Positions 13,126-64,000 of a stretch of DNA of 64,000 nucleotides are shown here, one piece after another (the first letter of the stretch is position 1; every line of letters starts with the position of its first letter). This DNA is from a virus: positions 20,867-84,866 of IMG/VR virus record IMGVR_UViG_3300034407_003683. One strand, written 5' to 3'. The notes under the pieces are model-generated. The model searched no databases, had not been told where the DNA came from, and saw only the letters and a program-made list of their open reading frames with translations. The translations under genes were made by a program, and so were the position numbers.

Positions 13126-13962
13126 TTGGAACTAAATATATTATGTACATCTAAACCGTGTGATGGTCTTTTGTATTACAGCTATGAATATTGTAGTTAT
13201 CTAAATTCAATTGGAATTAAAACACAATTAATTATAATTCCACATCCAGGATTTAATCAAGAAGATTACTTTAATTCAATTACATCAAAATATATCTCAT
13301 ATCAAAATGTAACATTTGATCCAGATAGATGGTCAAATACTACACTCATTATGGGTCGAAGCATGCTGACAATTGGATATCTTAACAGAAATAGATATTC
13401 CATGGAACAATTGCTCTTACTTCATTTACTTTTTAGAGATACAATTGTTGCTGTCTATTCTGAAAATCATCCAATCGAATATGAAAATGCCTTAGAGTAT
13501 TTTTGTCCATACGATGTAATTGATATCTGTGACTATGATGTATATCCAAATGGTGTTGGAGAACATTTTGAAAAGAGAATTAATTTTGACATATATAAAC
13601 CTATAATCAATGATATTAAATTTAAATATCTTTTCAATGGAACCAATAAGAAATACTATACTGCAGCGCAAAATATTTTACATAAATATAAGTCACATGG
13701 AATTTTAGTATATGATCTAAGTGTCATTGATATAAACAACAATAATATTATAGTGCCTATGGATAATTTATTAGGTTCGTTTGAATCATACGTCTATACA
13801 AAAAATATATTGGATCCAGCTCCACGATTAATTCAAGAGTGTAAACACTTTAATAAAGAAATAATTATAGAAAATTCCAATCGCGGCCTAGAAGTCTATA
13901 TGAATAGGAATACTTATGAAAAAAATACTACTAGTTTCTGGTTGCAGTTTTACAACAGATAA
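13126..13962 (+). CDS. Hypothetical protein, possibly glycosyltransferase-fold related
   Basis: 278 aa ORF with TTG start after a GAGG-rich SD. First gene of the overlapping island operon. The C-terminal DPAPRLIQECK motif recalls GT-B signatures, but only weakly. Confidence 0.5.
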   Translation: MELNILCTSKPCDGLLYYSYEYCSYLNSIGIKTQLIIIPHPGFNQEDYFNSITSKYISYQNVTFDPDRWSNTTLIMGRSMLTIGYLNRNRYSMEQLLLLHLLFRDTIVAVYSENHPIEYENALEYFCPYDVIDICDYDVYPNGVGEHFEKRINFDIYKPIINDIKFKYLFNGTNKKYYTAAQNILHKYKSHGILVYDLSVIDINNNNIIVPMDNLLGSFESYVYTKNILDPAPRLIQECKHFNKEIIIENSNRGLEVYMNRNTYEKNTTSFWLQFYNR

Positions 13963-14650
13963 TTTTAATTCGCTTTTTCACCCAGAAATATCATGCGCTT
14001 GGCCTAAATGGCCAAAATTGTTAGCAAATAAATTAGATATGGATTTAATCAATTTAGCTAATTCAGGTGCTGGTAATGAATACATATATAGTACTCTTAT
14101 TGACAAAATATCTGAAATTAATCCAAAAAATATAGGGTTAACTATTGCAGCATGGTCACAATCACAGCGCTGTGACTATGAAATAAGAGATACTTCCCGA
14201 TGGCTACATGAAAGAATTGACGAAAAAGGTGACATACATTATTTTGTTAGAAAAAGTTTAAGATATTATTATAGTTTTCAATTATTATGCGAAAGACTAG
14301 ATATTCCATATAAGCAAATGCAAATGATAGAATTATTTGATGATTATCTTAATGGGTTAAAAGGGTTGCCCGGAAAAAATAATGAAAGAACTATATTATA
14401 TCCAAAAAATAAATCTATATCTCGAGATAAAGTGAATGCGTCGTTTTGCACTCATTCAATATTTGACAAAATAGATGATAATATGTTTTTAGGTTGGCCA
14501 ATCTTACCCGAGTTAAATGGATATAATATACAAAACAAAGTAACAGATAACTCTAGATTAAGGCATATTTTTTCTCTTTCTGAATTAGATAGCCACCCAA
14601 ATAAAAAAGGTCATGAAATGATAGCGGAATTTATATATGAAAATCTTTAG
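13916..14650 (+). CDS. SGNH/GDSL-like hydrolase or acyltransferase
   Basis: Block I LLVSGCSFT, block II NLANSGAGN, and C-terminal DSHPNKKGH (DxH). Confidence 0.7.
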   Translation: MKKILLVSGCSFTTDNFNSLFHPEISCAWPKWPKLLANKLDMDLINLANSGAGNEYIYSTLIDKISEINPKNIGLTIAAWSQSQRCDYEIRDTSRWLHERIDEKGDIHYFVRKSLRYYYSFQLLCERLDIPYKQMQMIELFDDYLNGLKGLPGKNNERTILYPKNKSISRDKVNASFCTHSIFDKIDDNMFLGWPILPELNGYNIQNKVTDNSRLRHIFSLSELDSHPNKKGHEMIAEFIYENL

Positions 14651-16121
14651 CGCAGCTCTTAATTCACATGATCATAATACATATGATGGTGTCTTGCACA
14701 AACAAATGGAGAGATATACTCGCTTTAAGCATAATATCCCATACCATTTTGATGCGTATGATATACATCCAGTTGAAACAAGGCAAAATAAATACGATTA
14801 TACTTTAATTAATGATTTTTATAAAGAACATTTTCTTTCTCAATATAAATTATTAGCTTTTACTTTTACTACAAATGCCCTTTCTAAATTAAAAAGTCAT
14901 AATATACATCAAAACTTTATAAACTTTAAACCAAAAAACATATGGGACTACTGTAAAATTGATAATCAATATTATATTGACCATCATCAATCTCATGCAA
15001 CATATGCATACTTGAGTTCTGGTTATAATGAGTCTGATATATTAGCAATTGACGGTAATGGATCTAATTTTAAATGCATCTTTATTGATAAATTTGGTAA
15101 TATTACAGATTTATCTAATAAATTACCTATCGGTCTAATATGGAATTTTATATCATATAATTGTGGGTTCGGTTATCTCAATGCGGGAAAGGTGATGGGG
15201 TTGGTAGCATATGGTGAATATAATAACTTACACAATTCTCTTTTTAATATAATGGTGACTGATATGGATAATAGTAAAAGTGATTATAAAGATTATTTAA
15301 AAAATGAGAATAAATTAGATTTAGCATTTACTTTACAAAAATTTACAATGGAACAAGTGTTCAAATATGTATTATCTCTTAAAACTTCAGATAATATATG
15401 TATAGCTGGTGGTGTTGCATATAATGGCTATATGAATGAAGAGTTTACAAAGCATTATAGAAACGTACATGTACCTCCGGCATGTGGGGATGAGGGACAA
15501 TCACTTGGGGCTTATATGCACGCCGACTATATTTTAAATAATAATATCCATGTACCTGAAACATATGCTGGACAAGAGTATAAATTTGATGAAGGAGACC
15601 CAATTACACCTAGAGAAGTTGGTCAAGCAATTGCTGATGGAAAAATTATAGGATGGTTTAATGGTAAATCTGAATCAGGAAATAGAGCTTTAGGTAATCG
15701 TAGTATTCTTGCTGATCCTCGTAATGCTCATATAAAAGATATTATTAATGAAACAATAAAAGAAAGAGAAGATTTTAGACCATTTGCGCCTGCAGTATTG
15801 GAACAACACTATAAAGATTATTTTAATACAAATCAACCTAGCCCATATATGTCGCGTATTGTGCCAGTTAAATCAGATAAGATACCTGGTGTGACTCATA
15901 TAGATAATACTGCTAGGATACAAACGGTAAATAGAAAACAGAACGAAAAATTTTATGATGTAATACATGGATTTTATCAAGCAACTGGAATTCCTATGGT
16001 ATTGAATACAAGTTTTAACTGTAAAGAACCAATAGTTGAAACACCAGAAGATGCAATAAGAACATTTAAAAGAACTAAGTTGGATATGGTAGTGATTAAT
16101 GGAAGAGCATTAAAGAAATGA
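14637..16121 (+). CDS. NodU/CmcH-family O-carbamoyltransferase
   Basis: Motifs HHQSHA, AIDGNG, GKVMGL, AGGVAYN, GDEGQSLG, RALGNRSILADP, REDFRPFAP and LNTSFN. Confidence 0.93.
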   Translation: MKIFSAALNSHDHNTYDGVLHKQMERYTRFKHNIPYHFDAYDIHPVETRQNKYDYTLINDFYKEHFLSQYKLLAFTFTTNALSKLKSHNIHQNFINFKPKNIWDYCKIDNQYYIDHHQSHATYAYLSSGYNESDILAIDGNGSNFKCIFIDKFGNITDLSNKLPIGLIWNFISYNCGFGYLNAGKVMGLVAYGEYNNLHNSLFNIMVTDMDNSKSDYKDYLKNENKLDLAFTLQKFTMEQVFKYVLSLKTSDNICIAGGVAYNGYMNEEFTKHYRNVHVPPACGDEGQSLGAYMHADYILNNNIHVPETYAGQEYKFDEGDPITPREVGQAIADGKIIGWFNGKSESGNRALGNRSILADPRNAHIKDIINETIKEREDFRPFAPAVLEQHYKDYFNTNQPSPYMSRIVPVKSDKIPGVTHIDNTARIQTVNRKQNEKFYDVIHGFYQATGIPMVLNTSFNCKEPIVETPEDAIRTFKRTKLDMVVINGRALKK

Positions 16122-16444
16122 AATATATAAATCCACAATGCGTAAGCTTCTCTTATAATGAAAATGGAAAAAAAATATACAAATCTCCATACGGATGGTG
16201 TAAAGGTATTGCTTACTGTACTGATGGATTTTTATTACCATGTTGTTGGTGTGATCAAACAAATCTTTATGAAGATTTTAAAAATTTAGGTTTTTATAAT
16301 GAAAATTTAAAATTAGAAAATAATGATAGTATAGAAGATATATTACTTTCAGAAACATGGAAAAATTTTATCCATGTTATATTAAGCACTCCCCATTTAG
16401 CCCCTCGAGTTTGTAAAAAGAAATGTGGTATATATGAGGGATAA
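16118..16444 (+). CDS. Stand-alone SPASM/twitch-like Fe-S domain protein
   Basis: CKGIAYCTDGFLLPCCWCD...SIEDILLSETW...VCKKKC. Confidence 0.65.
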   Translation: MKYINPQCVSFSYNENGKKIYKSPYGWCKGIAYCTDGFLLPCCWCDQTNLYEDFKNLGFYNENLKLENNDSIEDILLSETWKNFIHVILSTPHLAPRVCKKKCGIYEG

Positions 16445-17096
16445 TGATTATTATCGATATATGCTACATCAAAAAGAAAATGCTAGCATTAATATTGATA
16501 CGTCTAATAAGTGCATTCTAGAATGTCCTGGTTGCCAACGAAATGATTTAAGAAATAAAGATAAAATAAAAAATGGCAATATTATGCCTATATCTGATTT
16601 TATAAAAATTGTAGAATATTACGATAATATAAACTTATGCGGTCAAATATCAGATCCAGTTTATTATAGACATTTTAATGAATTTTTAGATATTACAAAA
16701 GAATATCCGACTAAAACTTTTAAAATAGCCACCGCGGCTCATCAAAAAAATTTACAATGGTATAAAAATGCATTTAATAGACATAATAATAATGTTCAAT
16801 GGATTTTTGGTTTAGACGGTTTACCCAATACTAGTTTTTTATATAGAATAAAACAGAATAGTCAATTAATATTTGATGCCATGATATTAGGCACAAAATT
16901 AAATAAAAAAATTTCATGGCAATTTATAGTTTTTGATTATAATAAACATCAAATTGAAGAAGCAAAAAAGATAGCAAAGGAAAATGATATAAGATTTATA
17001 TTAACAATATCTGATAGAAATAGAAATAGATCAGATAGTCCAGAAGAATATAAAAAAAAATATAAGATAAAAAATACAAAAAGAATTATAACATGA
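16425..17096 (+). CDS. Radical SAM protein (start may be ATG at 16434)
   Basis: CxxxCxxC motif (KCILECPGCQR), CGQISDP, and FGLDG. Confidence 0.85.
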   Translation: MVYMRDNDYYRYMLHQKENASINIDTSNKCILECPGCQRNDLRNKDKIKNGNIMPISDFIKIVEYYDNINLCGQISDPVYYRHFNEFLDITKEYPTKTFKIATAAHQKNLQWYKNAFNRHNNNVQWIFGLDGLPNTSFLYRIKQNSQLIFDAMILGTKLNKKISWQFIVFDYNKHQIEEAKKIAKENDIRFILTISDRNRNRSDSPEEYKKKYKIKNTKRIIT

Positions 17097-17797
17097 ATAT
17101 TATATGTGTTAAATGGGGTGATAAGTTTAATCATGAGCATGTTAATAGGCTCTATAAGATGATACTTAAAAATATAAAAGATGATTTTACATTTGTGTGT
17201 TACACAGAAAATCCAAATAATCTACACCCGGATATTAAAACTATTCCACTTGATCTCAATTTAAATCTAGAAAATTGGTGGTGGAAACTTACACTCTTTA
17301 AACATAAAACGGATGAAGTTAATATCTTTTTTGATCTTGATGTAGTAATTCAAAATGATATTACACATCTTAAAGATCTTTGTGTAGAAGATATGTTGTA
17401 TATGATAAAAGCATATTGGAAAACATATCCTTTAACTGAATTTGATACCAATCTAAACTCTTCTGTTATGATATGGAAAGGTGATTTATCTGATCTTTGG
17501 ATTAAATTTGAAAAAGATCAAGATTATTATATGCTCAAATATAATGGTATAGATTCTTATTTAGATCATGATCAACATGATAAACTACTTTACATTCCGA
17601 AAGGTGAAGTTTATTCTAGGTTATATGGTATAGATGAGAATAACTATTGGAAAGTTGGCACAGAATTTAAAAATTATTTCTATTCAGAAAAATATAATAT
17701 ATGCATTTTTAATGGTTGGCGTAGGAAAACCGATAAGATTAATAACAAATATTTACTAGATAATAATGGATACGAAGGCTTTGAACAATATTATTGA
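17093..17797 (+). CDS. GT-A fold glycosyltransferase
   Basis: N-terminal ICVKWGDKF...VNRLY, DxD motif FFDLDVVI, and NSSVMIW. Confidence 0.8.
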   Translation: MNIICVKWGDKFNHEHVNRLYKMILKNIKDDFTFVCYTENPNNLHPDIKTIPLDLNLNLENWWWKLTLFKHKTDEVNIFFDLDVVIQNDITHLKDLCVEDMLYMIKAYWKTYPLTEFDTNLNSSVMIWKGDLSDLWIKFEKDQDYYMLKYNGIDSYLDHDQHDKLLYIPKGEVYSRLYGIDENNYWKVGTEFKNYFYSEKYNICIFNGWRRKTDKINNKYLLDNNGYEGFEQYY

Positions 17798-18398
17798 TCC
17801 AATATATTGGAAAGTTTTATGGAATGCTGCTAATGCAGGCTACGACATGAAACAAATGCTTGACAGTTTGTCTCCTAATCAAATTAAATCTAAAGTATGG
17901 TTAGTTGAAATGTTAAGTATATGTGCAATAAAAAATCCATCTATTCAATTATATGGTGGGTGGAATGGATTTCCTCTTATTGACTTGTTAAGAGAAGAAT
18001 TCAAAATTTCATTATTAGAAAATATTGATTTAGATGAATCAGCGCTGAAGGTCTATAAAAATTTTATTAACAAAAAACAACTCAAAACTAGTGTATATAG
18101 AGCAAGACATGGAGATGCGTGTGAGCCATATAAAGTTGATAAGGAAATAGATATTGTAATTAATACTTCATCTGAACATATGCCAGATTTACCAGAACTT
18201 ATAAAAAGTAAAAACTATAAAAAATCTTGTATATTTGCGTTACAGAGTAATAATATGTTTTACGTTAAAGATCATATTAATTGTGTAAATAGTAAAGAAG
18301 AATTAGAAACAAAATCTAAATTATCTAGAATATTGTATTCTGGTACATATGTAATGCCAAATGGATATGAAAGATATATGGTAATAGGCAATGTCTAA
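17766..18398 (+). CDS. Class I SAM-dependent methyltransferase-like protein
   Basis: LYGGWNG motif I variant, acidic IDLD, DIVINTSSEH, and FALQSNN. Confidence 0.7.
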   Translation: MDTKALNNIIDPIYWKVLWNAANAGYDMKQMLDSLSPNQIKSKVWLVEMLSICAIKNPSIQLYGGWNGFPLIDLLREEFKISLLENIDLDESALKVYKNFINKKQLKTSVYRARHGDACEPYKVDKEIDIVINTSSEHMPDLPELIKSKNYKKSCIFALQSNNMFYVKDHINCVNSKEELETKSKLSRILYSGTYVMPNGYERYMVIGNV

Positions 18399-19296
18399 AG
18401 TTATTTTTAGTTTATATATTGACATCCCGGAAAATGAATTAGACGAACAGTCTGCTCATTGGGGATCAAACATATCAAAAACTCTTCATACGAAAATACA
18501 ATTAAAAGATAATTATAAATGGCTTATAGAGTCTCAACAAAGATATGCCAACTATATTGGTGTTGAGTATAAACACTATACATATGATTCTGCTTATATA
18601 AAATATAAAGAATGGTTTAATTTAAATTATCCAGAGGTTACGTCATATAACATTGTTAATTTTTATAAACTTAAATTATTATATAATTTAGCAAAAGACT
18701 ATGATGAAATATTATATCTAGATCTAGATGTTATTCCAGTTTCAACCGATAACTTTTTTAAAACTTGGGATTTATCACAAGGTATTGCTATTATGAGTGG
18801 TACAGCAGAAAGTCAAAAAGATATTGAAACTGATAATAGAGAACTTTTAAGAATTAAATATACGAATAATAGTAATAGATCGCCAATCGCAAAGTATTGG
18901 AATGCAAAAGCTATGCTTTTAGAAAAAGGATATACATGTGAATCAACAGTATTTAATACTGGAATTGTTGGAGCATCTCAAAAATGGCTTAAAGCTTTAG
19001 ACTATTTTGGTGACTTTAGAAATATAATAGATTATATGACGCAGCTAAAAACAGATGATGGATTTTATCCAGAACAGATTCAAAGCTTATTTGGATATGA
19101 TAATGAAACAATATGGGCATACAAAACACTAAGTAAAGATGTACCATGGCAAAAGCTAACACCAGATTGGCATTGTTTTATGGATAAATGGAGTTATATT
19201 CCATCAAATACTAAACTAGTTCATTGTATCAATAAAGATTTTAAGTATGTAAGAGATTGGTATGAAAAGAATAATATTCTCAATCTTTTCAAATAA
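18391..19296 (+). CDS. GT-A fold glycosyltransferase
   Basis: YDEILYLDLDVIP (DxD), FNTGIVG and DNETI. Paralogous to the next gene. Confidence 0.8.
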   Translation: MSKVIFSLYIDIPENELDEQSAHWGSNISKTLHTKIQLKDNYKWLIESQQRYANYIGVEYKHYTYDSAYIKYKEWFNLNYPEVTSYNIVNFYKLKLLYNLAKDYDEILYLDLDVIPVSTDNFFKTWDLSQGIAIMSGTAESQKDIETDNRELLRIKYTNNSNRSPIAKYWNAKAMLLEKGYTCESTVFNTGIVGASQKWLKALDYFGDFRNIIDYMTQLKTDDGFYPEQIQSLFGYDNETIWAYKTLSKDVPWQKLTPDWHCFMDKWSYIPSNTKLVHCINKDFKYVRDWYEKNNILNLFK

Positions 19297-20038
19297 AGTA
19301 GAGAAAAATCACCAGTCAACCGGCGATTTTAAAATATCTCAATTTATAAAATATAAAGATTCTTTAGTTAAATCGCAAAAGGCGTATGCACAAATTTGTA
19401 ATGCTGATTACGAATTATTTGAAGTATCAGAAACGCTGTATGATAAAATTCAATTTGACAAACTTTATAAAATGGAAGAGTTAACTCAATATTATGATGA
19501 AGTTCTTTATTTTGATTTAGATGTCATTCCTAATACAAATGAAAGTTTTTTTAAATCTAATGATTTAAATTCCATTTGTGCATATTCATTTGAAAGAACG
19601 TTACAATCAAATGTTCTACAAAGAAAAATATCAGAAAATGATTTTGATAAAATGAATGTATTTTCAAAAGGCTGTTGTAAAAAATCTATGCTATTACTTG
19701 AAGACATAAATTCTGATTATAAAGTAATTAACACAGGTATTATTGGAGGTAATAAATACTCTATAGATGCTTTATCATTTGATAAGCGATTAGAAAGTAC
19801 CTATGATATTTACAATCAAACAATTACTGATAATCTTTATCCTATAGAAATTTCTAGAAACTGGAGACCTAATAATGAAGTGTTTATTACATATATGATA
19901 GAAAAATACAAAGTTCCATTTATTAATATTGGTATTCAGTGGAATTTTATAATTGACGATATATATCCAAATGTCTCAGAAGCGGGTAAATTAATACATG
20001 TAGTGCATAAGGATTTTGGTAAAATATATGACAAATAA
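19262..20038 (+). CDS. GT-A fold glycosyltransferase
   Basis: YDEVLYFDLDVIP, INTGIIG, NNEVF and QWNF. Confidence 0.8.
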   Translation: MKRIIFSIFSNKVEKNHQSTGDFKISQFIKYKDSLVKSQKAYAQICNADYELFEVSETLYDKIQFDKLYKMEELTQYYDEVLYFDLDVIPNTNESFFKSNDLNSICAYSFERTLQSNVLQRKISENDFDKMNVFSKGCCKKSMLLLEDINSDYKVINTGIIGGNKYSIDALSFDKRLESTYDIYNQTITDNLYPIEISRNWRPNNEVFITYMIEKYKVPFINIGIQWNFIIDDIYPNVSEAGKLIHVVHKDFGKIYDK

Positions 20039-21236
20039 AAGAATAAAAAAACTTGAAACTATAGCAGATATCGTTTCAAAATTACCCTCTTATTGTTCTG
20101 CTGCATTTACTGAAATGTATGTAGACAATAATGGTCAATATAGATTATGCTGTCATGCTAAACCAAATCCAGTACTTAAACAATATACTAGTGATTCCAT
20201 TTTACCATTTGAATATTTTTTATCAAAAGAAATGGAAAATATTCGTGACTCAATGCTTGAAGGAAAACATATCCCAGATTGTGAAAAATGTAATTTGTTG
20301 GAAAAATATGGAAAATATTCATATAGACATAAATACATTGCGCGAGACGGGTTTATAACAGATATACAAGAAAAAACAATTAATCTAAAATTAAGAATTT
20401 CAGGATCATTCTGTAACCTTGCATGCTATATGTGCAATCCAGTAAATTCTACTACAAAGAGAAATGAATTAAATAAAATATTTGACATTGATAATACATT
20501 AAATGTATTTACTACAGGTATGAAAAATGCTAAAAGTGTTAAACATGCGCAGTGGAATGATATTGTAACTAATATATTAGAAAATATTCACCTCATTAAA
20601 ATAATTCATATGACTGGTGGGGAAACTTTACAACTTCCTAAATATTGGGAATTTTTGGATCTTATTCCAGATAAACATGCAAAGGAATTAATACTTACAC
20701 ATGATACTAATTTAACAAAGATTACATATAATAATCGCCATGTTTCAGATAATGCAAAGAGATTTAAATCATTTAATTTAAGTATTTCATGTGATCATAT
20801 ATTAGATAAATTATCTTGGATCAGATATCCAATTAACGTAGAAGAATTTGAGAATAATTTACAAGAAATAATATTAGATAAGAATATTAATAAAAACATT
20901 AATTGTACGGTTTCAATATTAAATATTGATGACTTATTTGAAATTAGAGACTACTATAAAAATAAATTTAAAGTTGATGTTTTATTTGAATGTATGGTTG
21001 TAAGCCCAAAAGAATTATCAATTTCTAATTTGCCAGAAAAACTTAAAGATGTATATAAAGAAAAATATAAAAATGATTTTGAATTTATATTAGCAGAGCT
21101 TAATAAACCAGCAGATCTAAAATTATTTGATAAAGGTCTAAAGTACTGTGATAAATTGTCAGCTCACCGACAATTTAATTTTAGAGTTCTATGGAAAGAT
21201 TGGCTAGAAAAAGTTACGACTTATAAAGATCAATAG
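20016..21236 (+). CDS. Radical SAM protein with N-terminal twitch/SPASM domain (start probably ATG at 20028)
   Basis: N-terminal C..F..MYVDNNGQYRLCC...CEKC, then CNLACYMC and MTGGE. Confidence 0.88.
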   Translation: MVKYMTNKRIKKLETIADIVSKLPSYCSAAFTEMYVDNNGQYRLCCHAKPNPVLKQYTSDSILPFEYFLSKEMENIRDSMLEGKHIPDCEKCNLLEKYGKYSYRHKYIARDGFITDIQEKTINLKLRISGSFCNLACYMCNPVNSTTKRNELNKIFDIDNTLNVFTTGMKNAKSVKHAQWNDIVTNILENIHLIKIIHMTGGETLQLPKYWEFLDLIPDKHAKELILTHDTNLTKITYNNRHVSDNAKRFKSFNLSISCDHILDKLSWIRYPINVEEFENNLQEIILDKNINKNINCTVSILNIDDLFEIRDYYKNKFKVDVLFECMVVSPKELSISNLPEKLKDVYKEKYKNDFEFILAELNKPADLKLFDKGLKYCDKLSAHRQFNFRVLWKDWLEKVTTYKDQ

Positions 21237-55490: not shown

Positions 55491-55724
55491 TTAATATGGG
55501 TTACCACTACCATCTACACCAGATACCACAATTGGTGGGCACTCACATACTTTAGTTGTAGCAATCTGATTAGTTAATTCATCAATTCGCTTATATGCAT
55601 TCTGCAATTGTTCTTGTAATTCGTAGACATTTTTTTCCAAAAGTTCAATATGTCCATCTCTGTTCATAATTTCCCTCCGAAAAAGTTCCGTTTCCGATTG
55701 TTCGTGATCTTGAAATTCTGCCAT
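55491..55724 (-). CDS. Small coiled-coil protein (start may be the internal MNRDG)
   Basis: Heptads LLEKNVYELQEQLQNAYKRIDELTNQ. GGAGG precedes the internal ATG. Confidence 0.55.
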   Translation of the reverse strand: MAEFQDHEQSETELFRREIMNRDGHIELLEKNVYELQEQLQNAYKRIDELTNQIATTKVCECPPIVVSGVDGSGNPY

Positions 55725-56089
55725 TGTTCTAATAAAACCTCCTGTAATTCATATGCTTCTATCTCCCACGGTAAATTCATATATTCTTCATGACTGCTAT
55801 AGAAATTACATTCAGTAAAGAATTCCTTATAGACTAATTGTTTAACGTGTACCATCTCATGAAAGATAGTGGTTGTAAAATCATCACCTAGGCCTAGTTT
55901 TTTGTCAATATCAATTTGATATTCTCTTTTACCAATATCTAGACATGTACCGTGATAACCTTTGAGTTTCCTTAGTGTGATATTAATTTCACATTTTTTG
56001 ATTCGAGGCATTAATTGTCGCCAAGTGAATGATGCACACTCAAATGCAATTTCTCTTTGCCGTTTACTTCCACCTTCTACAAAAATCAT
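55664..56089 (-). CDS. Zn-metallopeptidase-like (HExxH) protein
   Basis: TTIFHEMVHVKQ and YMNLPWEIEAY. GAGG SD behind an early promoter. Confidence 0.8.
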   Translation of the reverse strand: MIFVEGGSKRQREIAFECASFTWRQLMPRIKKCEINITLRKLKGYHGTCLDIGKREYQIDIDKKLGLGDDFTTTIFHEMVHVKQLVYKEFFTECNFYSSHEEYMNLPWEIEAYELQEVLLEQWQNFKITNNRKRNFFGGKL

Positions 56090-56151: not shown

Positions 56152-56847
56152 TTATAGTATTCCATTAGCTGGTGGTCTCCAACCAATACTTTCATCTTTC
56201 ATTGGTTTTTCCACAATCTCGCCGCGGCGGCCATACTTTTCAATTACAATATTGTCTGGTAATTTAAACTTTAGATTATCATGCATATGGTGAAGAATAA
56301 ATTCACACCGATGTTCCTTACCAGAACCATTAAAATCTTTAAAGATATTTTGCCACAAAGGCCTCCAATTGTTTGTTAACCTATTGTTATTCATATTACC
56401 TCTATCAGAATTGATATAGATGTCAGTGTAACTTCTTAGATTAAAATCAAAAATTGAATCAAATCCATACATATGGATTCTATCTGCCTTTAGATGTTGA
56501 GCGGCAAAATATACTGCCATGTGACCACAATTTAGATCGGTATAATTTGCAGCATATTTTGGCAATTTGGTATAGAACATTTTAATCTGATGTGACCTTT
56601 GCATATGGAATCCTGGATGTTTTTCCATATACACCTTAGGTCTTGCTCCTAGAATCCATTCTCCAGGCACATCAACATCACCCTTATGAATAGTCTTCAT
56701 CATCTTAAAGTCCACCATGCACGATGCATAGCAATTCTCAATAGGAAATGGTGCTTTATTACACGCTAGTTTTAATCCTTTTCTAGGAGCTTCATTATAG
56801 AATACTGCGGAATCCCCATTACCCACCACATGTACTGTCTTAGCCAC
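56152..56847 (-). CDS. Sialyltransferase/MAF-like Rossmann-fold glycan-modifying protein
   Basis: VHVVGNGDS...LACN, NCGHMAVYFA...RIHMYGFD (GT29/DUF115-like pattern). Confidence 0.6.
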   Translation of the reverse strand: MAKTVHVVGNGDSAVFYNEAPRKGLKLACNKAPFPIENCYASCMVDFKMMKTIHKGDVDVPGEWILGARPKVYMEKHPGFHMQRSHQIKMFYTKLPKYAANYTDLNCGHMAVYFAAQHLKADRIHMYGFDSIFDFNLRSYTDIYINSDRGNMNNNRLTNNWRPLWQNIFKDFNGSGKEHRCEFILHHMHDNLKFKLPDNIVIEKYGRRGEIVEKPMKDESIGWRPPANGIL

Positions 56848-57523
56848 GTAGAGCCTCCATAATTTTCATTTTACCTCTAATCCTATCATTACCTTGTTCA
56901 CCAGTCCAATGCATAATCTTTTTATTTGGACTATCTTCATTATCAGCTTCAACTTGTAGTCGTAACCAATTATATATGTTTGGTAGTTCGGCGATATAGG
57001 TAATCATAGTAATAGGGTTTAACATACTATGTAACACTTCTTGATCACCAACTGCTGGATTTCTTTTTACAGCTTCAGCCCATTGTTTTAGAATATCTGG
57101 TTTCTGATGAAAACCAACAACACCAGAATTGTGCCATTGTTCATTACGCCGTAACAACCATGGTCTATCAATTGCCATTGTAAGTTTATTTGGTTGAATA
57201 TATCTAAACATATTTTCAATATTACCTAGTATTTCACAATCAGTATCAATCCAAAACACATTATGACCTGGTGCGGATAACATTGCAGCTGGTTTATGAA
57301 ACCAACCTTTGTCATAGTTCTCATCACCCTTATTAATATCCATGTAACAAAAAACACCAGCCCTATCATAGACACGTTTTTTCATTTCTTCTGACATACC
57401 AAAATTGGCAACTGCAATTGGTATGGTATTATGCTTAAAATAGTTATCTAAAAACCATGGCAATTGCCATTCAGTTTTTTTATCACATCCAGTAACAATT
57501 AATTTTTCGGGCATCTTAGGCAT
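56840..57523 (-). CDS. GT-A nucleotide-diphospho-sugar transferase
   Basis: IVTGCD, GWFHKP, FWIDTDCEI (DxD), NSGVVGF and GDQEVL. Confidence 0.8.
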   Translation of the reverse strand: MPKMPEKLIVTGCDKKTEWQLPWFLDNYFKHNTIPIAVANFGMSEEMKKRVYDRAGVFCYMDINKGDENYDKGWFHKPAAMLSAPGHNVFWIDTDCEILGNIENMFRYIQPNKLTMAIDRPWLLRRNEQWHNSGVVGFHQKPDILKQWAEAVKRNPAVGDQEVLHSMLNPITMITYIAELPNIYNWLRLQVEADNEDSPNKKIMHWTGEQGNDRIRGKMKIMEALRG

Positions 57524-58166
57524 TGATTATCTCATATCCATCTTTATAATTGTGTTTTGCGATACAGCCGTCTTCTTTCTGAATAGTAGTAAAACTATCC
57601 ACGGCCATACAAACCCAAGGATAATATTCTTGCAACCATGAGAAGTTTTGAAGATTAATAAATGTATCAGCCGGTGCGGCATTAATTAATGCTTTAGCAA
57701 TAAACTTTTTTGCACCAACAGGATTAATCATATAACCATGTGCACCACCAAAGTATTGTTTCTGAACTAGTCCATCAACTCCAAGCTTTATTGGTGTATT
57801 AAATTTACCATATGATGGTTTTGAGAATGTCATACATCCATCAAATTTCTCATTTACTGGGACTGGGCCGGTAATAACAGCATCATGCTCAAAGACTACA
57901 ATTGTCTCATCATTTTCAACTGCCATCTCCCATAGTGAATGATGTGATAAAAAGCACGACATACAATTTTCTAATCGAGAGTATCGTTCAACAAATCCGT
58001 GAGGAGAAATACCTTTCTTATGTAGAATTTCCCATGGTTTGTCTTTAGGAGTATATGCTTTGTGCATATTAACTTCAAGTCCATATTTGGCGGCAGATTT
58101 AATACATCTTTCTGCCGCCTTTACAGACTGAGGATTATCCATAATTGTAATTACAAAGGCTTTCAT
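57516..58166 (-). CDS. GT25-like glycosyltransferase
   Basis: KAFVITI, SCFLSHHSLWE...VVFEHDA, GAHGYMINP.GAKK. Confidence 0.85.
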   Translation of the reverse strand: MKAFVITIMDNPQSVKAAERCIKSAAKYGLEVNMHKAYTPKDKPWEILHKKGISPHGFVERYSRLENCMSCFLSHHSLWEMAVENDETIVVFEHDAVITGPVPVNEKFDGCMTFSKPSYGKFNTPIKLGVDGLVQKQYFGGAHGYMINPVGAKKFIAKALINAAPADTFINLQNFSWLQEYYPWVCMAVDSFTTIQKEDGCIAKHNYKDGYEIINA

Positions 58167-58167
58167 A

Positions 58168-58866
58168 TCAATTCACCGTAGTTGATGGGAGTCCTTGAAC
58201 TCTTGTAAAATAAAGTTTAGTCACACCCAAGTTAGGAATAATTTGCTTACACATTATTGCATCGTTTGGCCAAACACCATGTTCTTTGACTGCCTCAAGT
58301 AAGTTTTTAGCACCCTTAGGTTTAATTATATATGCAGAATTTCCGGCAAGGCCTTGAGGAATATTGAACTCATCAATATCTGGTACTGGTTGTACCCATG
58401 CTGGTTTACTCTGTACAATATCATGGAATTGATGCGCACGGCGCGTAGCTGACGCAGGAGAGTTAATGCCAATGATATCATAGTTACTCTTAAGGATAGA
58501 TTTATAATCTAATTTTTCAATAAACAATGCATCATGTTCCATAATAAGTATTGGTTTATCAATTGTGGTGCATTTATGCCACAACAACCAATGGCTCATT
58601 GCACATGCAATTCTACTATTCTTATTTGATGTCTGATATGCAGACTTAACAAGACCAGTTCTAAGGTCTGTCTCTTTACCTTCCCATGGATATTTCCATT
58701 TAAGACCATTGCCGATCATAATAGTATGTGCCATATCAGGTGTCACAGCATCAAATATATTAATATCAAAATTATTTTTTACTTTTTTTGACGATTTAAT
58801 AAGGTTATTTGTTCCGACCTGTGATGTTTCACTATTTGCTAATGTTATGGCATATGCATCTAACAT
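58168..58866 (-). CDS. GT25-like glycosyltransferase (start corrected to 58866)
   Basis: AYAITL, FDAVTP, ACAMSHWLLW...LIMEHDA, GNSAYIIKPKGAKNL. Confidence 0.85.
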   Translation of the reverse strand: MLDAYAITLANSETSQVGTNNLIKSSKKVKNNFDINIFDAVTPDMAHTIMIGNGLKWKYPWEGKETDLRTGLVKSAYQTSNKNSRIACAMSHWLLWHKCTTIDKPILIMEHDALFIEKLDYKSILKSNYDIIGINSPASATRRAHQFHDIVQSKPAWVQPVPDIDEFNIPQGLAGNSAYIIKPKGAKNLLEAVKEHGVWPNDAIMCKQIIPNLGVTKLYFTRVQGLPSTTVN

Positions 58867-58867
58867 A

Positions 58868-59554
58868 TTAGAAACCTCTGTATCTATTTTTATGCCCTGA
58901 AATTTTATGATTAATATCGGCCTTAATAAAGACAATATCCATCTGATTTACAACATTATGTCTCATTGCAATGTGATCAACTCCAGTTGGAATAAAACCA
59001 TTAGCATACATTGTGTCAATATATTTACTAAAATTTGGTGCACCTTTATTATATGGCATTATTGGCATTTCTAATATTGCTACTTTGGCATGTTCCATTG
59101 CATCAGAGCCACCATTAATAATATCTACCTCAGCACCCTGTGTATCCATTTTAATAAAATCTGGTAAAGGTAGATTCTTTTCTTCAATTACTGTATTAAG
59201 TTTCTTTGTAGTTAACAGTACAGATTTACCTTCGGAATAATTAACAGTTAATTCCTTATAATAACTATCACCAGTACTTGCCTTACCACTATTAGCTAAA
59301 AAGAACTCCACTGTTCTATCATCTGCATCTGATAATACCTGATGCATATACATATCATTATTTAATGAAATTGCACATTTATTATTTGGATTGGCTTCGA
59401 ACATAATATATTTGGCATTAGGAATATGCTTTCGCCATTCCTGGGTCCATCTACCTACATTAGCACCAATATCATATACTACATCAATGTTATATCCAGC
59501 ATTAATTACTTCATTAATAACCGTAGTACAAGGTCTTTCCATATTTCTAGCCAA
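58868..59554 (-). CDS. FkbM-family methyltransferase
   Basis: YDIGANVG, MFEANP, DFIKMDTQGAE and QMDIVF. Confidence 0.9.
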   Translation of the reverse strand: MARNMERPCTTVINEVINAGYNIDVVYDIGANVGRWTQEWRKHIPNAKYIMFEANPNNKCAISLNNDMYMHQVLSDADDRTVEFFLANSGKASTGDSYYKELTVNYSEGKSVLLTTKKLNTVIEEKNLPLPDFIKMDTQGAEVDIINGGSDAMEHAKVAILEMPIMPYNKGAPNFSKYIDTMYANGFIPTGVDHIAMRHNVVNQMDIVFIKADINHKISGHKNRYRGF

Positions 59555-59555
59555 T

Positions 59556-60284
59556 TTATTCTCCTATAATTCCGGCATTTACCAGATCAATATAATTTTC
59601 TTCTCTACTCTTAGGCTTGTGTCTGATGTGTATCATATTAGCCTTTTCCGGATTTGGAAGATAGCTACTGTAATCCCATTTCTCATCCAAATATTTATCT
59701 AGTTTAAAGTTAGCTTTTACACACAGAACATGGAAGATACCTTCATCAACATACGGCCTAGGGCTAATCTGTTCAAATACTTTTCTCATGGCCGGATTAA
59801 TTTGTGCCCTCATTAATTGTCTAAATTCTCTAGGCATAACATAGATGGCACCAGACCACATAGGATAGTTTGGATTGCCCAATCTAGGAAACTCATTAAT
59901 GAATGCAGGTAATTGTCTCTCACGGTGGATCTGATCAAATGGTGCAATGCCTTTTGCTTCAAATACATTTTCGGTACAACTAGTTGTGACAAACTTATCG
60001 GTATCCAATACAACTACTGTATCATAATCATCATATTCTTCATTAATTGCGGCACACTTCTGACACTGACCTCTTAAACCTTTTTGGAATGGTTCTCCAT
60101 CCAAGAGCTTATATTCAGCACCAAGTTTATCGGCATACTTTTTAATATTCTCTACACTCTTTTCTACGATGAATGGTAACCTACCACCACGAGATTCCAT
60201 CTCTTGAATTACATTTGGCCGAAATGGGTGAAAGTGTTGTAGAATAATATTTTTCATTTTATATAGTTCTTTCTGTTTCCACAA
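59556..60284 (-). CDS. GT-A fold glycosyltransferase (start probably MKNIILQH at 60257)
   Basis: YDTVVVLDTDKF, SGAIY and DEGIFH. Paralogous to its neighbours. Confidence 0.75.
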   Translation of the reverse strand: MWKQKELYKMKNIILQHFHPFRPNVIQEMESRGGRLPFIVEKSVENIKKYADKLGAEYKLLDGEPFQKGLRGQCQKCAAINEEYDDYDTVVVLDTDKFVTTSCTENVFEAKGIAPFDQIHRERQLPAFINEFPRLGNPNYPMWSGAIYVMPREFRQLMRAQINPAMRKVFEQISPRPYVDEGIFHVLCVKANFKLDKYLDEKWDYSSYLPNPEKANMIHIRHKPKSREENYIDLVNAGIIGE

Positions 60285-60916
60285 TAATGTACTAGTGTAG
60301 CATCCGGAGCAGCTTCCTCTGGTAGGTCACAAAATCTATCATGAGGAATTTCTAATTTTGTTTTATTATCTAAAATGCCTGATTGCACAATTAAATAATG
60401 CATTATGATCTCATCGTTTGGTGGTAATCCATCGGATGACATACTATTATGTATTACGTCAGTATTCAATTCTTTTCTAAGATTGATTCGTTGTTCTCTA
60501 GTAAATTTAACACAATTGCCAAAGAACATAGGCTGTTGTCTGGTATAGAGTTTTGGCCATTTACGACCATTTTTACTACCACTGATATTTCGCATACCGA
60601 CTTTATGAAGCCGTCCAATACCATTATGAATAAAAATATTATCCAATTTACCAGTAAATAACATATCCATATCTAACATAAGTACATTATCATACTCATC
60701 ATATTTTTCATTCAACATAAAGATTTTTTGAATTACCAACCATGGCTTTGTTTTTGTATTGGGAAACCAGTCACCCATAGGAAATCCTTGAAGCAATTCA
60801 TAATCTGCTCCAATTCTTCTAGAATAGTCTTCAATACTATTTTTACAAATATTTGCCCATCTAGGCATATCACCATGCCAATGCTGTAAAATAATATTTT
60901 TCATTATAGATTCCAT
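60254..60916 (-). CDS. GT-A fold glycosyltransferase (start probably 60904)
   Basis: YDNVLMLDMDM, NDEIIMHY and LVHYCG. Confidence 0.75.
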   Translation of the reverse strand: MESIMKNIILQHWHGDMPRWANICKNSIEDYSRRIGADYELLQGFPMGDWFPNTKTKPWLVIQKIFMLNEKYDEYDNVLMLDMDMLFTGKLDNIFIHNGIGRLHKVGMRNISGSKNGRKWPKLYTRQQPMFFGNCVKFTREQRINLRKELNTDVIHNSMSSDGLPPNDEIIMHYLIVQSGILDNKTKLEIPHDRFCDLPEEAAPDATLVHYCGNRKNYIK

Positions 60917-61722
60917 TCAGAAACAGGTAGATTTACTACTCGTTTAATTTTATCGGCCGGCCAATTATCTGCACCATTTAATTGAATATGTACCATATTT
61001 GCATTTTTTCTTAAATCAATTACTGGCCTTGGTTGTTGTTTATTACCTGGATCAAAGTGGACAGAACTATTCCATTTATAGTCCATGGTCAACCAATCAA
61101 ATGCACATACTTCTAACATTGCATGAAAATAAGGTTGATCACAAGTATAGAATGCCGGCAGATTAAATACTTTAGCCAAATTTACATATTTTGCAAAATC
61201 GTATAACTTTTCTCTTGCTTTTGCCAATCCAGCCTTAGAGTAAATAATAACACCGGTATTATAAACTTTAGGTAGACCATCGGTAGTACGTGGCATTTTT
61301 ACTGGCCACTTTTTTTCAATAAGTGCTACCCATTTTTCATCATTGGCGTTATTAATTCCACCACCAATAGTATATTTTTTTCTGGTCAATGGTGCATTAA
61401 TTTCTTCACAGATACCAATTTCAAAATTAGTACCATAGAATTGTTCAAAAATGTTTTCATTACAAATATCTGTTGGTACAACATCGCAATCTGCATACAT
61501 AATATAATCATATTCAGAATATTCATCTTCGAATATTGGTTTAAATTTACCATAATTTGCAGAATAGGAACCTAAGTCTGTCCTAAATTTTGGATTGTGT
61601 TCGTACTTATGATCTGCCCCAATTCTTTTGGCATACTGTTCCATGGCTTCAATACCAGCCATATTACCAGGTCGTTCAGTACCATCCCAACATTGATATA
61701 TCAGTGTTTTCATAATTACCAC
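60904..61722 (-). CDS. GT-A fold glycosyltransferase (start probably 61713)
   Basis: YDYIMYADCDV, YNTGVIIY, CDQPYF and WN...VHI. Confidence 0.8.
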   Translation of the reverse strand: MVIMKTLIYQCWDGTERPGNMAGIEAMEQYAKRIGADHKYEHNPKFRTDLGSYSANYGKFKPIFEDEYSEYDYIMYADCDVVPTDICNENIFEQFYGTNFEIGICEEINAPLTRKKYTIGGGINNANDEKWVALIEKKWPVKMPRTTDGLPKVYNTGVIIYSKAGLAKAREKLYDFAKYVNLAKVFNLPAFYTCDQPYFHAMLEVCAFDWLTMDYKWNSSVHFDPGNKQQPRPVIDLRKNANMVHIQLNGADNWPADKIKRVVNLPVSEWNL

Positions 61723-62858
61723 TTTGGTGATGTAAGAATATTATTTACATTTAGATTATCTTTCATCTTTTCTGCAATAAACTTTACATCATCAACCAAA
61801 CCTTTATTTAATGTAATGGGTTTAAACCCTAGGCTTTTAAGCCCTTCATTACTCACAGATAGATCATTCTCTGCAAGTTCTTTACGAGGATTATCGACAT
61901 ACTTAATAGTACCACCATACGATTCTGCACACAATTCGGCAAGTTGTTTTACAGACATAACCTCTGAAACTTGATTAAAGATACGAACCTTACCTTTACT
62001 TGGTGGATTTTGTACGGCCAGTGCAACACACCGAGCAGTATCTTCAATATGAATAAAGGCGCGTTTTTGACCACCAATACCATAGACAGTAATATCATTA
62101 CCAGTTGCTGCCTGAGAGATAAAACGATTTAACACAGTACCATAGATTCCATCATAATCAAATCTGTTGGTGAGCGTCTCATGTTTTCTAGTTTGTTCGG
62201 TTTGTGTTCCCCAAACAATACCTTGGTGTAGATCAGTAATTTTAAGCCCCCAGTTCTTATTATAGAATTGGAATAGCAATTGGTCCATAGATTTGGTCAT
62301 ATGATAAACACTACCAGGATTTGTAGGATATAGAATATCAACATCCTTTTCGGTAGAGTTAATCTTTACATTCAGATAACCTTCTGGAATATCGCCAAAC
62401 TCTTTCGAATAACCATATACACCCATTGTACCCAAATGTACCAAGTGAATATCTGGATTTACTTCTACAATTGCAGAAAGAATATTATGTGTGTTGGTGA
62501 TATTATTGTCAACCGTATAGCGCCGAGTTGTAGAATTAATCATTGAGTATGGAGCAGCACGTTGTTCGGCAAAATGGATGATGGTATCTGGATAAAAAAC
62601 AGAAATAATATCTAATAACTCATCATAATTATTAATATCAGTATTGACGATATCAATGCTACCACCAATCATTGCGCGGGCAACTTTAATTCTCTGGCCA
62701 GGGTCACTAATATTGGTAAGTGAATTTGAACCTAGTTCTTTATCAATCTTCCGCCGAACAAGATTATCAATAATGAGAACATCATGACCTTCATCCAATA
62801 ACTTTAACGATGTAGGCCAACCACAGAACCCATCACCACCTAATACAATAATTCTCAT
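61716..62858 (-). CDS. sqdB: UDP-sulfoquinovose synthase
   Basis: GGDGFCGWPT, DNLVRR, HFAEQRAAPYSM, LVHLGTMGVYGY, PGSVYHMTK..DQLLF, DLHQGIVWGT, NRFDYDG.YGTVLNRF and RAFIHI: SqdB/SQD1-specific motifs along the whole length. Confidence 0.93.
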   Translation of the reverse strand: MRIIVLGGDGFCGWPTSLKLLDEGHDVLIIDNLVRRKIDKELGSNSLTNISDPGQRIKVARAMIGGSIDIVNTDINNYDELLDIISVFYPDTIIHFAEQRAAPYSMINSTTRRYTVDNNITNTHNILSAIVEVNPDIHLVHLGTMGVYGYSKEFGDIPEGYLNVKINSTEKDVDILYPTNPGSVYHMTKSMDQLLFQFYNKNWGLKITDLHQGIVWGTQTEQTRKHETLTNRFDYDGIYGTVLNRFISQAATGNDITVYGIGGQKRAFIHIEDTARCVALAVQNPPSKGKVRIFNQVSEVMSVKQLAELCAESYGGTIKYVDNPRKELAENDLSVSNEGLKSLGFKPITLNKGLVDDVKFIAEKMKDNLNVNNILTSPKW

Positions 62859-63649
62859 TCGTCTACTCCAATTTGTTTCATTAATTCTTTTACATCTTCA
62901 CCGCGGTTTGGTAGTTTATCCTTTAGGAAAAAATGTACAAAATTTGCTTCTTTAATTTTACTATTATCTATTGCAGTATAAAGTGCGTTCCATTTCCAAT
63001 CAAGCTTCTGCACGGTCATACCACACGTATTTACCCAGTAATTAAGTAGTGTTTGGTCTGTAGACCATTTCCAACCACCCATACCATCAACAAACTTTTT
63101 AAACTCTTCGCGGCGAATAAATTGTTCTGGTGTCTGTCCATTCAGATATTTTGCAAATGATTTATTCATTACCATCATTCCCATATTCATAAATGGGAAT
63201 CCAGTTGCTTCATTATATTGCCAATTGATTTTTAATTGACCATATTGCATTTTAGAATAATTGGAAATTTTTTGCACATACCATGGTAGAATAGGCATGG
63301 ATGCTTCGACAACTCCACCAAAATCTGCTTCTGGTTTTAGGTCATCAAAAATATTTGGAGCATCTGTACGGATATAGATATCGGCATCAATAATAGCAAT
63401 CTGATCGTATTGGTCAAAATATGAAAAGGCATTTTCCTTCTCATAGATTGGAAGGAATCCACCATGCTTTTCATATGACTCTTTACTACGATTTGTAACA
63501 AAGATATCTGGTTTAATTCTTAATTTTGGTATGGTCTGTACAATATGATCAATATTATGTTTTGCACAATATTCTGCACACGATTGGATACAGTGTTTAT
63601 ATAGTCTAGACTTTGCACCAACAGCAACTTGGTAAATCAATCTTTTCAT
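62855..63649 (-). CDS. GT-A (GT8-like) glycosyltransferase
   Basis: YDQIAIIDADIYI, NMGMMVMN, TDQTLLNYW, WKWNAL and FVHFF. Confidence 0.85.
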   Translation of the reverse strand: MKRLIYQVAVGAKSRLYKHCIQSCAEYCAKHNIDHIVQTIPKLRIKPDIFVTNRSKESYEKHGGFLPIYEKENAFSYFDQYDQIAIIDADIYIRTDAPNIFDDLKPEADFGGVVEASMPILPWYVQKISNYSKMQYGQLKINWQYNEATGFPFMNMGMMVMNKSFAKYLNGQTPEQFIRREEFKKFVDGMGGWKWSTDQTLLNYWVNTCGMTVQKLDWKWNALYTAIDNSKIKEANFVHFFLKDKLPNRGEDVKELMKQIGVDE

Positions 63650-63689: not shown

Positions 63690-64000
63690 CTAGTTTGTTA
63701 TCATAAATCTCAAATTCTCGTGATCAGGATAGTTCACTACGACTGGACCTTCAGGACACTCATAGTCAATATGTGCCAATAGAATTGCTTCTCCTGGTTT
63801 AATCATATCTTTATGTTCTTGGTCTATTGTAAATGAGAAACCAAACTTATCAATCTTCTCACTTGCCGGACCACTGAACTTTGCTATACTTGGAATTGCT
63901 TTATGGACATGATATTTACTGTCTTTGACTTCAAGTCTGAATCCAGTTACCTTACAATCATCTCTATGCTTTTCTCTTGCAACTACAACATCAAAAGATC
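63690..64000 (-). CDS. 3' end of a hypothetical protein (start outside window)
   Basis: Open frame ...SFDVVVAREKHRDDCKVTGFRLEVKD...HIDYECPEGPVVVNYP...MITN* running off the right edge. Confidence 0.7.
   Translation of the reverse strand, partial: SFDVVVAREKHRDDCKVTGFRLEVKDSKYHVHKAIPSIAKFSGPASEKIDKFGFSFTIDQEHKDMIKPGEAILLAHIDYECPEGPVVVNYPDHENLRFMITN

Follow-up and report, generated by a model that had tools for sequence, protein, structure and literature searches.

A UDP-sulfoquinovose synthase homologue as a possible exchangeable donor module in the glycosyltransferase operon of an uncultured marine T4-like phage

The DNA considered here is a stretch of 64,000 nucleotides, called the window throughout, which covers bases 20867–84866 of the 97.9-kb virus record IMGVR_UViG_3300034407_003683 of the IMG/VR collection. 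On its minus strand, an open frame with an ATG start (61716..62858) encodes a 380 amino acid long homologue of UDP-sulfoquinovose (UDP-SQ) synthase, SqdB, which matches the plant enzyme SQD1. The gene is the second member of a tightly packed minus-strand operon with the order A, SqdB (B), C, D, E, F, G, H, I, J, K and with overlaps of 4–13 nt between successive genes. SqdB overlaps its upstream neighbour A (62855–63649) by 4 nt and its downstream neighbour C (60904–61722) by 7 nt. A preliminary description, drawn from the letters alone, had proposed a full-length SqdB with intact NAD-binding and catalytic motifs, overlapped on both sides by glycosyltransferase (GT) genes. Both statements hold: the protein matches SQD1 from end to end with its key residues kept, and the products of the two overlapping genes are both distantly GT8-like. 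The analysis draws on sequence, on the neighbourhood of genes and on a pair of structure models of modest quality.

That the gene is phage-encoded, as had also been claimed, is borne out by its surroundings. The record encodes wedge and hub proteins of a T4-type baseplate together with a T4 baseplate protein, gp32, a class II ribonucleotide reductase (RNR), RNase H and PhoH, and its homologue of the baseplate protein gp6 is 40% identical to that of phage C48C1 (Kyanoviridae), 34% to that of Methylophilales phage Melnitz and 32% to that of Pelagibacter phage HTVC008M. The replicon is an uncultured marine T4-like myovirus contig, and metagenomes of seawater, marine and estuary origin from at least 11 studies contain near-identical DNA, the stretch being common in coastal or estuarine material. 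A megablast comparison of 20 kb of the window with GenBank phages gave no match, and no tRNAs, looked for in the flanks as a clue to the host, were seen. For C48C1, the nearest GenBank phage, the host is not on record and no paper mentioning it was found. A relative of SqdB is present in 78 IMG/VR loci, and in about 45 of them (SqdB identity of at least 65%) the A–K operon, also called the cassette below, can be made out despite small rearrangements, two of these carriers being complete genomes; the counted loci are mutually related, and their counts do not equal independent events. On contigs from ENA and NCBI, genes for RNR, RNase H, PhoH and a PDDEXK protein lie upstream and are followed by the cassette, and the same phage synteny surrounds 72%-identical proteins in a large protein collection, one of them filed under an NCBI metagenome-assembled genome (MAG). 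Dozens of independent contigs share the A–K synteny, so that the assembly is unlikely to be chimeric. The record is only 58% complete, so absences from it carry little weight; for absences we relied on two complete relatives, which are SqdB-cassette genomes of 152.7 and 146.6 kb with terminal repeats.

Residues 2–380 of the window SqdB align with residues 3–382 of Arabidopsis SQD1 (1qrr) at 318 bits (E 6e-94), and GalE, the next PDB family, reaches 47 bits only. Among NCBIfam models, NF041015 (UDP-sulfoquinovose synthase) matches best (E 1.8e-112). The NAD motif GGDGFCG is present, and the SQD1 residues R101, T145, Y182, H183, K186 and Q209 are all kept in the window protein as R100, T144, Y185, H186, K189 and Q212. 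In SQD1, Thr145, Tyr182 and Lys186 are catalytic, His183 is a family-specific residue beside the catalytic Tyr, and Arg101 and Gln209 contact the substrate. Across an alignment of 37 viral and 80 cellular SqdBs, G7, G10, G13, T144, Y185 and K189 are invariant, as are the equivalents of His183 and Gln209 (H186, Q212), and the equivalent of Arg101 is kept in 36 of the 37 viral members. Within the viral clade, pairwise identity ranges from 54 to 100% (median 69%) and length from 376 to 387 amino acids, except for one incomplete copy, a pattern of conservation that fits long-term purifying selection. We accept the protein as a UDP-sulfoquinovose synthase whose activity is predicted from these sequence features.

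A quick maximum-likelihood tree of 138 sequences, built without an outgroup, places the window protein with the SqdBs and not with generic GalE-type short-chain dehydrogenases/reductases (SDRs), in agreement with the name that the preliminary description had given it. It falls into a clade formed by 37 viral sequences and the bacterium Paramylibacter ulvae (SH-aLRT 99). Other virus-labelled SqdBs occupy at least three further positions in the tree, including giant-virus MAGs and a group of 110–285-kb contigs; SqdB homologues of 49–55% identity lie on GVMAG contigs (L058, L060) and on virus-labelled contigs of 110–285 kb (L049–L067). This scatter suggests several independent viral acquisitions or, alternatively, that some cellular contigs are mislabelled as viral. 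A tblastn search of SqdB against GenBank phages returned generic SDRs only, with at most 28% identity, and no cultured phage in that collection carries SqdB, although records close to this genome may have lain outside the search. In the 80 bacterial loci of highest similarity, no member of the cassette families was found beside sqdB. Among 401 alphaproteobacterial genomes sampled, no match to SqdB exceeded 60% identity.

The nearest cellular SqdBs stand in polysaccharide contexts, next to Stf0 in Paramylibacter, to GT1, epimerase and GT2 genes in one SAR116 genome, and to a BcsB-like protein and GT2 in roseobacters. The single bacterial SqdB that falls inside the viral clade (67% identity) is that of Paramylibacter ulvae and a sister genome (L082:8001–10881, L179). 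The gene adjoins two Stf0 sulfotransferases, with a 650-aa GT8-domain protein near; it does not differ from its flanks in GC content, which leaves no clue to the direction of transfer. In several roseobacters (Tateyamaria, L084:9278–12669; L101, L122), the place after sqdB is taken not by sqdD but by genes for a BcsB-like protein and a GT2 synthase of 611 aa, a layout that hints at a sulfoquinovose-containing exported polymer.

The position of SqdB within the GT island is central to our interpretation. The island has conserved anchors, with G-H-I-J(-K) on one side and the PDDEXK gene, two small genes and A on the other, and SqdB lies in a hypervariable segment between them. The anchored set comprises 46 unique loci that hold both PDDEXK and the GT25 pair G–H; SqdB is found in 12 of them, whereas A, the left-hand conserved member of the island, occurs in 37, with or without SqdB. 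The G–H pair is kept in all island loci, and relatives of J number at least 565 in IMG/VR, far more than those of SqdB. Different gene sets stand at this place in the other loci. One consists of a PF03567 carbohydrate sulfotransferase and a methyltransferase; another combines a RuBisCO-like protein with an NTP-transferase, a TylF-like O-methyltransferase and a HAD–NTP-transferase fusion. The sulfotransferase stands at SqdB's position in L198 (6677–7381) and in L181, L188, L201–L203, L205 and L032, the last of which has both enzymes. The RuBisCO-like module (PF00016, E 9e-21), an unusual nucleotide-sugar pathway in a phage, was seen in 13–14 loci (e.g. L220:5021–6163, L219, L235, L237, L248–L259), with the fusion in some. 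That these alternatives are sugar-activating or sugar-decorating functions is the strongest argument for SqdB supplying a variant sugar to the glycan of the conserved transferases. The sulfotransferase alternative also points to anionic, sulfur-bearing decoration as a solution that recurs.

The transferases that share the operon with SqdB, all on the minus strand, comprise several families. A (62855..63649) is a GT-A glycosyltransferase that carries a DxD motif and is distantly GT8-like; its match to PF01501 (E 9e-5) is just under the Pfam cutoff, six of the ten members of its family match PF01501, and D88 and D90 are invariant. C (60904..61722) is a GT-A glycosyltransferase and a paralogue of A, D and E, with four of nine family members matching PF01501 and an invariant DxD motif. 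An AF2 model of C, of low confidence (pLDDT 58) and used solely to assign the GT-A fold, matches GT-A transferases only, namely PBCV-1 A64R, LH3, XXT1 and LgtC; the family profiles of A and C gave no match to PDB sequences at E up to 1. D (60254..60916) and E (59556..60284) are further GT-A paralogues of this group by hhalign (D–E 100%, C–D 99.2%), and E adjoins SqdB in several cassette variants ('B E' orders). Profile–profile comparison connects A, C, D and E as paralogues at 96–100% probability (A–C 99.3%, C–E 99.9%). F (58868..59554), a member of the FkbM family of methyltransferases (TIGR01444, E 4e-18; PF05050, E 8e-15), is probably a sugar O-methyltransferase.

The conserved core includes the GT25 glycosyltransferases G (58168..58935; PF01755, E 1.3e-15) and H (57516..58166; PF01755, E 1.9e-13), which are paralogues (hhalign G–H 100%); collagen-like Gly-X-Y repeats, a possible target of GT25 enzymes, were looked for in the record and none was found. 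I (56840..57523) is a probable GT-A nucleotide-sugar transferase with a weak, below-cutoff match to PF03407 (Nucleotid_trans; E 1.1e-3). J (56152..56847) has a predicted sialyltransferase-like fold (GT42, CstII-type; AF2, pLDDT 67): the top 14 Foldseek matches of the model in the PDB are CstII, CstI or Pasteurella sialyltransferases, at E of about 1e-3 and TM of about 0.4. One Atlas cluster related to J carries PF01973 in 34% of its members. The assignment of J as a GT42 sialyltransferase, derived from this model, is a lead only. A CMP-sugar synthetase for J was not found in these phages, so that J would have to draw on a CMP-sugar of the host, for instance CMP-Kdo; an NTP-transferase was also looked for and not found. 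The 141-aa protein K (55664..56089), which closes the operon, follows J in most loci and matches only PHROGs of unknown function.

Upstream of A, the window contains the 3' part of a 155-aa open reading frame (ORF; 63690..63998, minus strand), which is cut by the window end and runs to window-equivalent position 64157 (L002 6557–7024); it is the first of two small genes that separate a late-promoter motif from the cassette. Just upstream of the GT island, a small protein is also encoded (L002:7021–7476, window-equivalent 64154–64609) that has two hydrophobic helices and matches an EF-hand weakly; it is kept in 45 of the 46 anchored loci and is the sole membrane-type protein near the island. 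In a Kyte–Doolittle scan, neither A–K nor the ten ORFs downstream showed a hydrophobic segment, and the cluster contains no flippase, polymerase, oligosaccharyl-transferase or initiating transferase. The lack of hydrophobic segments in A–K argues for assembly in the cytoplasm.

The preliminary description had left two functions open for SqdB, a phosphate-sparing role in making the sulfolipid sulfoquinovosyl diacylglycerol (SQDG) or the supply of a donor for glycans, and it had recognised no neighbour as SqdX, SqdC or SqdD. We made SqdD and SqdC profiles from ten Rhodobacteraceae sqdB-sqdD-sqdC operons, which were found through PF01501 and SqdB matches in 201 genomes. In many Rhodobacteraceae operons, sqdB is followed within about 150 nt by a GT8 protein of 262–285 aa (SqdD) and then by SqdC. 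Against the cassette, the SqdD profile gave short matches in the DxD region of A, C, D, E and I only (best 70% probability over 34 columns), and the SqdC profile gave no match (probability at most 0.7%); an SqdD HMM found nothing in the 78 viral loci. SqdX and SQD2 belong to the GT4 family PF00534; a search for it found nothing on the record or in four relatives, of which two are complete genomes, and 14 of 14 control genomes matched. Judged by these profiles, the phage brings no recognisable SQDG synthase, and the earlier statement about the neighbours is upheld.

SqdB could still be a sulfolipid auxiliary gene that raises the UDP-SQ pool, from which the host's SqdD or SqdX, or a divergent GT8-like protein of the cassette, would make SQDG and spare phosphorus for phage DNA synthesis, but we regard this as unlikely. 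The protein is a bona fide SqdB by sequence, PhoH is on the record, sqdB is found in about a fifth of the sampled Rhodobacteraceae genomes, often with sqdD adjoining, and A, C, D and E are distantly related to GT8, the family of SqdD. Viral SQD1 has also been read as membrane-related (PMC13288924; PMC7785012, there with a glycosylation slant). Beyond the absence of SqdD, SqdC and SqdX, however, the gene sits, translationally coupled, in an operon of ten GT and methyltransferase genes and not among stress genes, and relatives hold a sulfotransferase or other nucleotide-sugar modules at its position, an exchange that would be senseless for lipid remodelling. Recently captured host genes are expected to be close to the host copy, whereas the viral SqdB clade is old and distinct from host sqdB save for one nested bacterium. 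As a host SQDG synthase could use phage-made UDP-SQ, the sulfolipid function is only weakened. The role as a glycan donor has gained from the soluble GT operon, the swappable module and the sulfotransferase alternative.

On balance we therefore lean towards SqdB feeding a phage sulfo-glycan that is built in the cytoplasm, and not the classical sulfolipid. During infection, host UDP-glucose and host sulfite would be converted to UDP-SQ by the phage SqdB. The UDP-SQ would be taken by an adjacent soluble GT-A transferase, most likely the C/E-type paralogue after SqdB, and since a C/E-type gene usually follows SqdB, C is the candidate sulfoquinovosyl-transferase. Sulfoquinovose may then join a methylated oligosaccharide assembled in the cytoplasm by A, C–E, the FkbM protein, the two GT25 enzymes, I, J and K. 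Because SqdB lies in the exchangeable sugar-tailoring segment, it would set the glycan variant, which here would be anionic and C-sulfonated. We infer the activity of SqdB, the use of UDP-SQ by one of the GTs and a glycan as the product. Cytoplasmic assembly is compatible with phage proteins, the inner-leaflet lipid A-core, lipid or DNA as the acceptor, and among the candidates we rank virion proteins or the host lipo-oligosaccharide core above DNA. The broader proposition seems to us evenly poised: that widespread marine T4-like phages attach a sulfoquinovose-containing methylated glycan to a non-lipid acceptor, be it virion proteins, lipo-oligosaccharide or DNA with 5-hydroxymethylcytosine (hmC), with the sulfotransferase module as the alternative in relatives.

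Several points weigh against the proposal of a sulfo-glycan, among them the weak evidence on the timing of expression. The score of the window SqdB on NF041015, 376 bits, misses the curated equivalog cutoff of 575 bits. Cyanobacterial, roseobacter, Corynebacterium and Oceanobacillus (Bacillota) SqdBs score just 321–347 bits on the same model; as genuine bacterial enzymes also miss the cutoff, the model is narrow and the miss is uninformative here. A PAPS reductase as a source of sulfite is absent here and in four relatives. It is also possible that a very divergent diacylglycerol sulfoquinovosyl-transferase is present among the GT8-like proteins A, C, D and E. The missed cutoff, the lack of a linked sulfite-producing gene and a second SDR that adjoins SqdB in some cassette variants could further mean that the SQD1 fold and residues are kept but serve a changed chemistry, with the enzyme making another 6-modified UDP-hexose or acting only as a 4,6-dehydratase/epimerase. 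We consider such a change highly improbable, because the SQD1-specific His183 and, but for Arg101 with 36 of 37 viral members, all other active-site residues are invariant and the NF041015 score exceeds those of genuine cyanobacterial and roseobacter SqdBs. To our knowledge, no reaction other than UDP-SQ synthesis has been described for the SQD1/SqdB family.

As to timing, TATAAATA motifs occur ten times in the window and twice in the next 20 kb, all of them 5–47 nt upstream of a same-strand ORF start, and behave as T4-type late promoters. Those in the window are confined to the virion module (6359–44452), and the two outside it lie at L002 7492–7499 and 11533–11540. The former (minus strand, window-equivalent 64625–64632) stands two small genes upstream of A, 16 nt before the ORF that precedes the 155-aa one, and no intrinsic terminator above chance level was found between this motif and the cassette. 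Late expression of the operon is possible. A good sigma-70-like site, however, lies 850 nt further upstream of this TATAAATA, and an exact copy of the motif precedes the cassette in no more than 12 of 45 related loci, which makes the evidence on timing weak; for the latter reason, the classification of the operon as late was rejected. Metatranscriptome contigs of 150–250 nt are 92–98% identical to sqdB and its neighbours, and, with sqdB by itself as the query, small shares were matched in five metatranscriptome runs, with no RNA run listed for the 6-kb stretch. These matches were set aside as expression evidence, as DNA carry-over is possible and they are uninformative on timing.

DNA as the acceptor was missing from the preliminary description and must be kept as an option because relatives encode a T4-type dCMP hydroxymethylase. 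UDP-SQ would then serve to hypermodify DNA at hmC, alone or within a longer chain, and so block host nucleases. The hydroxymethylase is encoded by both complete cassette-bearing relatives (253 bits to PDB 1b5e) and has 555 relatives in IMG/VR, although it was not found in the 58%-complete record itself. A T4 alpha-glucosyltransferase-like gene is present in only one of the two complete relatives, and the other would need a different transferase if its DNA is glycosylated. Sequence comparison indicates that many marine T4-like phages of this group probably contain hmC DNA, partly glucosylated. In the 146.6-kb relative G206 (L271:2117–3031 and 3792–5000), the hydroxymethylase adjoins alpha-glucosyltransferase-like and UDP-glucose-dehydrogenase-like genes. 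We nevertheless judge sulfoquinovose on DNA to be very unlikely. In 81 loci, the surroundings of the hydroxymethylase up to 6 kb away contain no gene of the cassette families, whereas a dedicated alpha-glucosyltransferase-like gene adjoins it in 22, and in a complete genome the hydroxymethylase is about 46 kb away from the cassette. The described DNA glycans of T-even-type phages consist of one to three sugars, compared with at least eight transferases and a methyltransferase in the island, and neither a ParB-like nor a TAGT-like gene was seen among the cassette genes.

Apart from the operon, the window has a low-GC island (26–30% GC; 13126–21236) that lies within the virion module and is encoded on the opposite strand; its genes include those for a NodU/CmcH-type carbamoyltransferase and a radical-SAM protein, and a similar carbamoyltransferase occurs in C48C1. 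We regard this island as a second candidate glycan-tailoring cluster.

If the proposed sulfo-glycan is real, it would be the first sulfoquinovose glycoconjugate of any virus, as far as our literature search showed, and would represent a new class of sulfoquinovose glycoconjugate as well as an unrecognised virus-driven source of sulfoquinovose in coastal seawater. Matches to viral 'SQD1' in surveys, which have been read as membrane remodelling, would then need re-reading.

In its length, fold class, whole-protein collinearity and NAD, catalytic and substrate residues, the window SqdB equals Arabidopsis SQD1 and bacterial SqdB (1qrr, 1i24), and it is 54–58% identical to the SqdBs of classical sqdB-sqdD-sqdC operons. 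Different from these, it is encoded by a lytic-type T4-like phage, belongs to a viral clade of its own and has no SqdD, SqdC or SqdX nearby or in the complete relatives. Agl3 of Sulfolobus acidocaldarius, whose family model NF041015 is the best family match of the window protein, provides a precedent for a UDP-SQ synthase family that feeds the N-glycan of a surface protein and not a lipid. The archaeal glycan is built on a lipid carrier and requires a membrane oligosaccharyl-transferase, whereas the proteins of the phage cassette are all soluble. A parallel for such soluble enzymes is given by the virus-encoded cytoplasmic GTs that act on capsid proteins, such as A64R of chlorovirus PBCV-1 and those of mycobacteriophage virion glycosylation. 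Like PBCV-1, the phage has soluble virus-encoded GT-A enzymes without a host secretory route, and A64R is the top structural match of C; the match is weak (TM 0.42–0.53, pLDDT 58) and, unlike in PBCV-1, no glycosylated virion protein is known or predicted for the phage.

Among phages, no paper on sqdB in T4-like members was found. A putative UDP-SQ synthase was reported on a Mu-like virus (Mara et al. 2020, PMC7785012), and a 2026 study in mSystems (PMC13288924) listed SQD1 among the most highly expressed viral auxiliary metabolic genes of estuarine-coastal waters, a habitat in which the present stretch also occurs, and read this enzyme family on viral contigs as membrane remodelling. Gene context and partners were not analysed in either study, the latter being a bulk annotation. 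Pelagimyophages carry 'LPS-like' clusters rich in GT8-type transferases (Zaragoza-Solas et al. 2020, PMC7029224). The phage described here resembles them as a marine T4-like myovirus with a GT8-type cluster and a baseplate protein 32–40% identical to those of HTVC008M, Melnitz and C48C1. In contrast to our findings, the stem 'sulfo' appears nowhere in the main text of that paper, and the layout of anchor, variable segment and core is not described there. The enzyme is thus already known in kind, and what is new is its setting, a glycan island of a phage in which it would act as an exchangeable donor module. The combination of a conserved core with an exchangeable tailoring segment resembles the diversity of O-antigens and suggests selection on the decoration of a surface or of nucleic acid.

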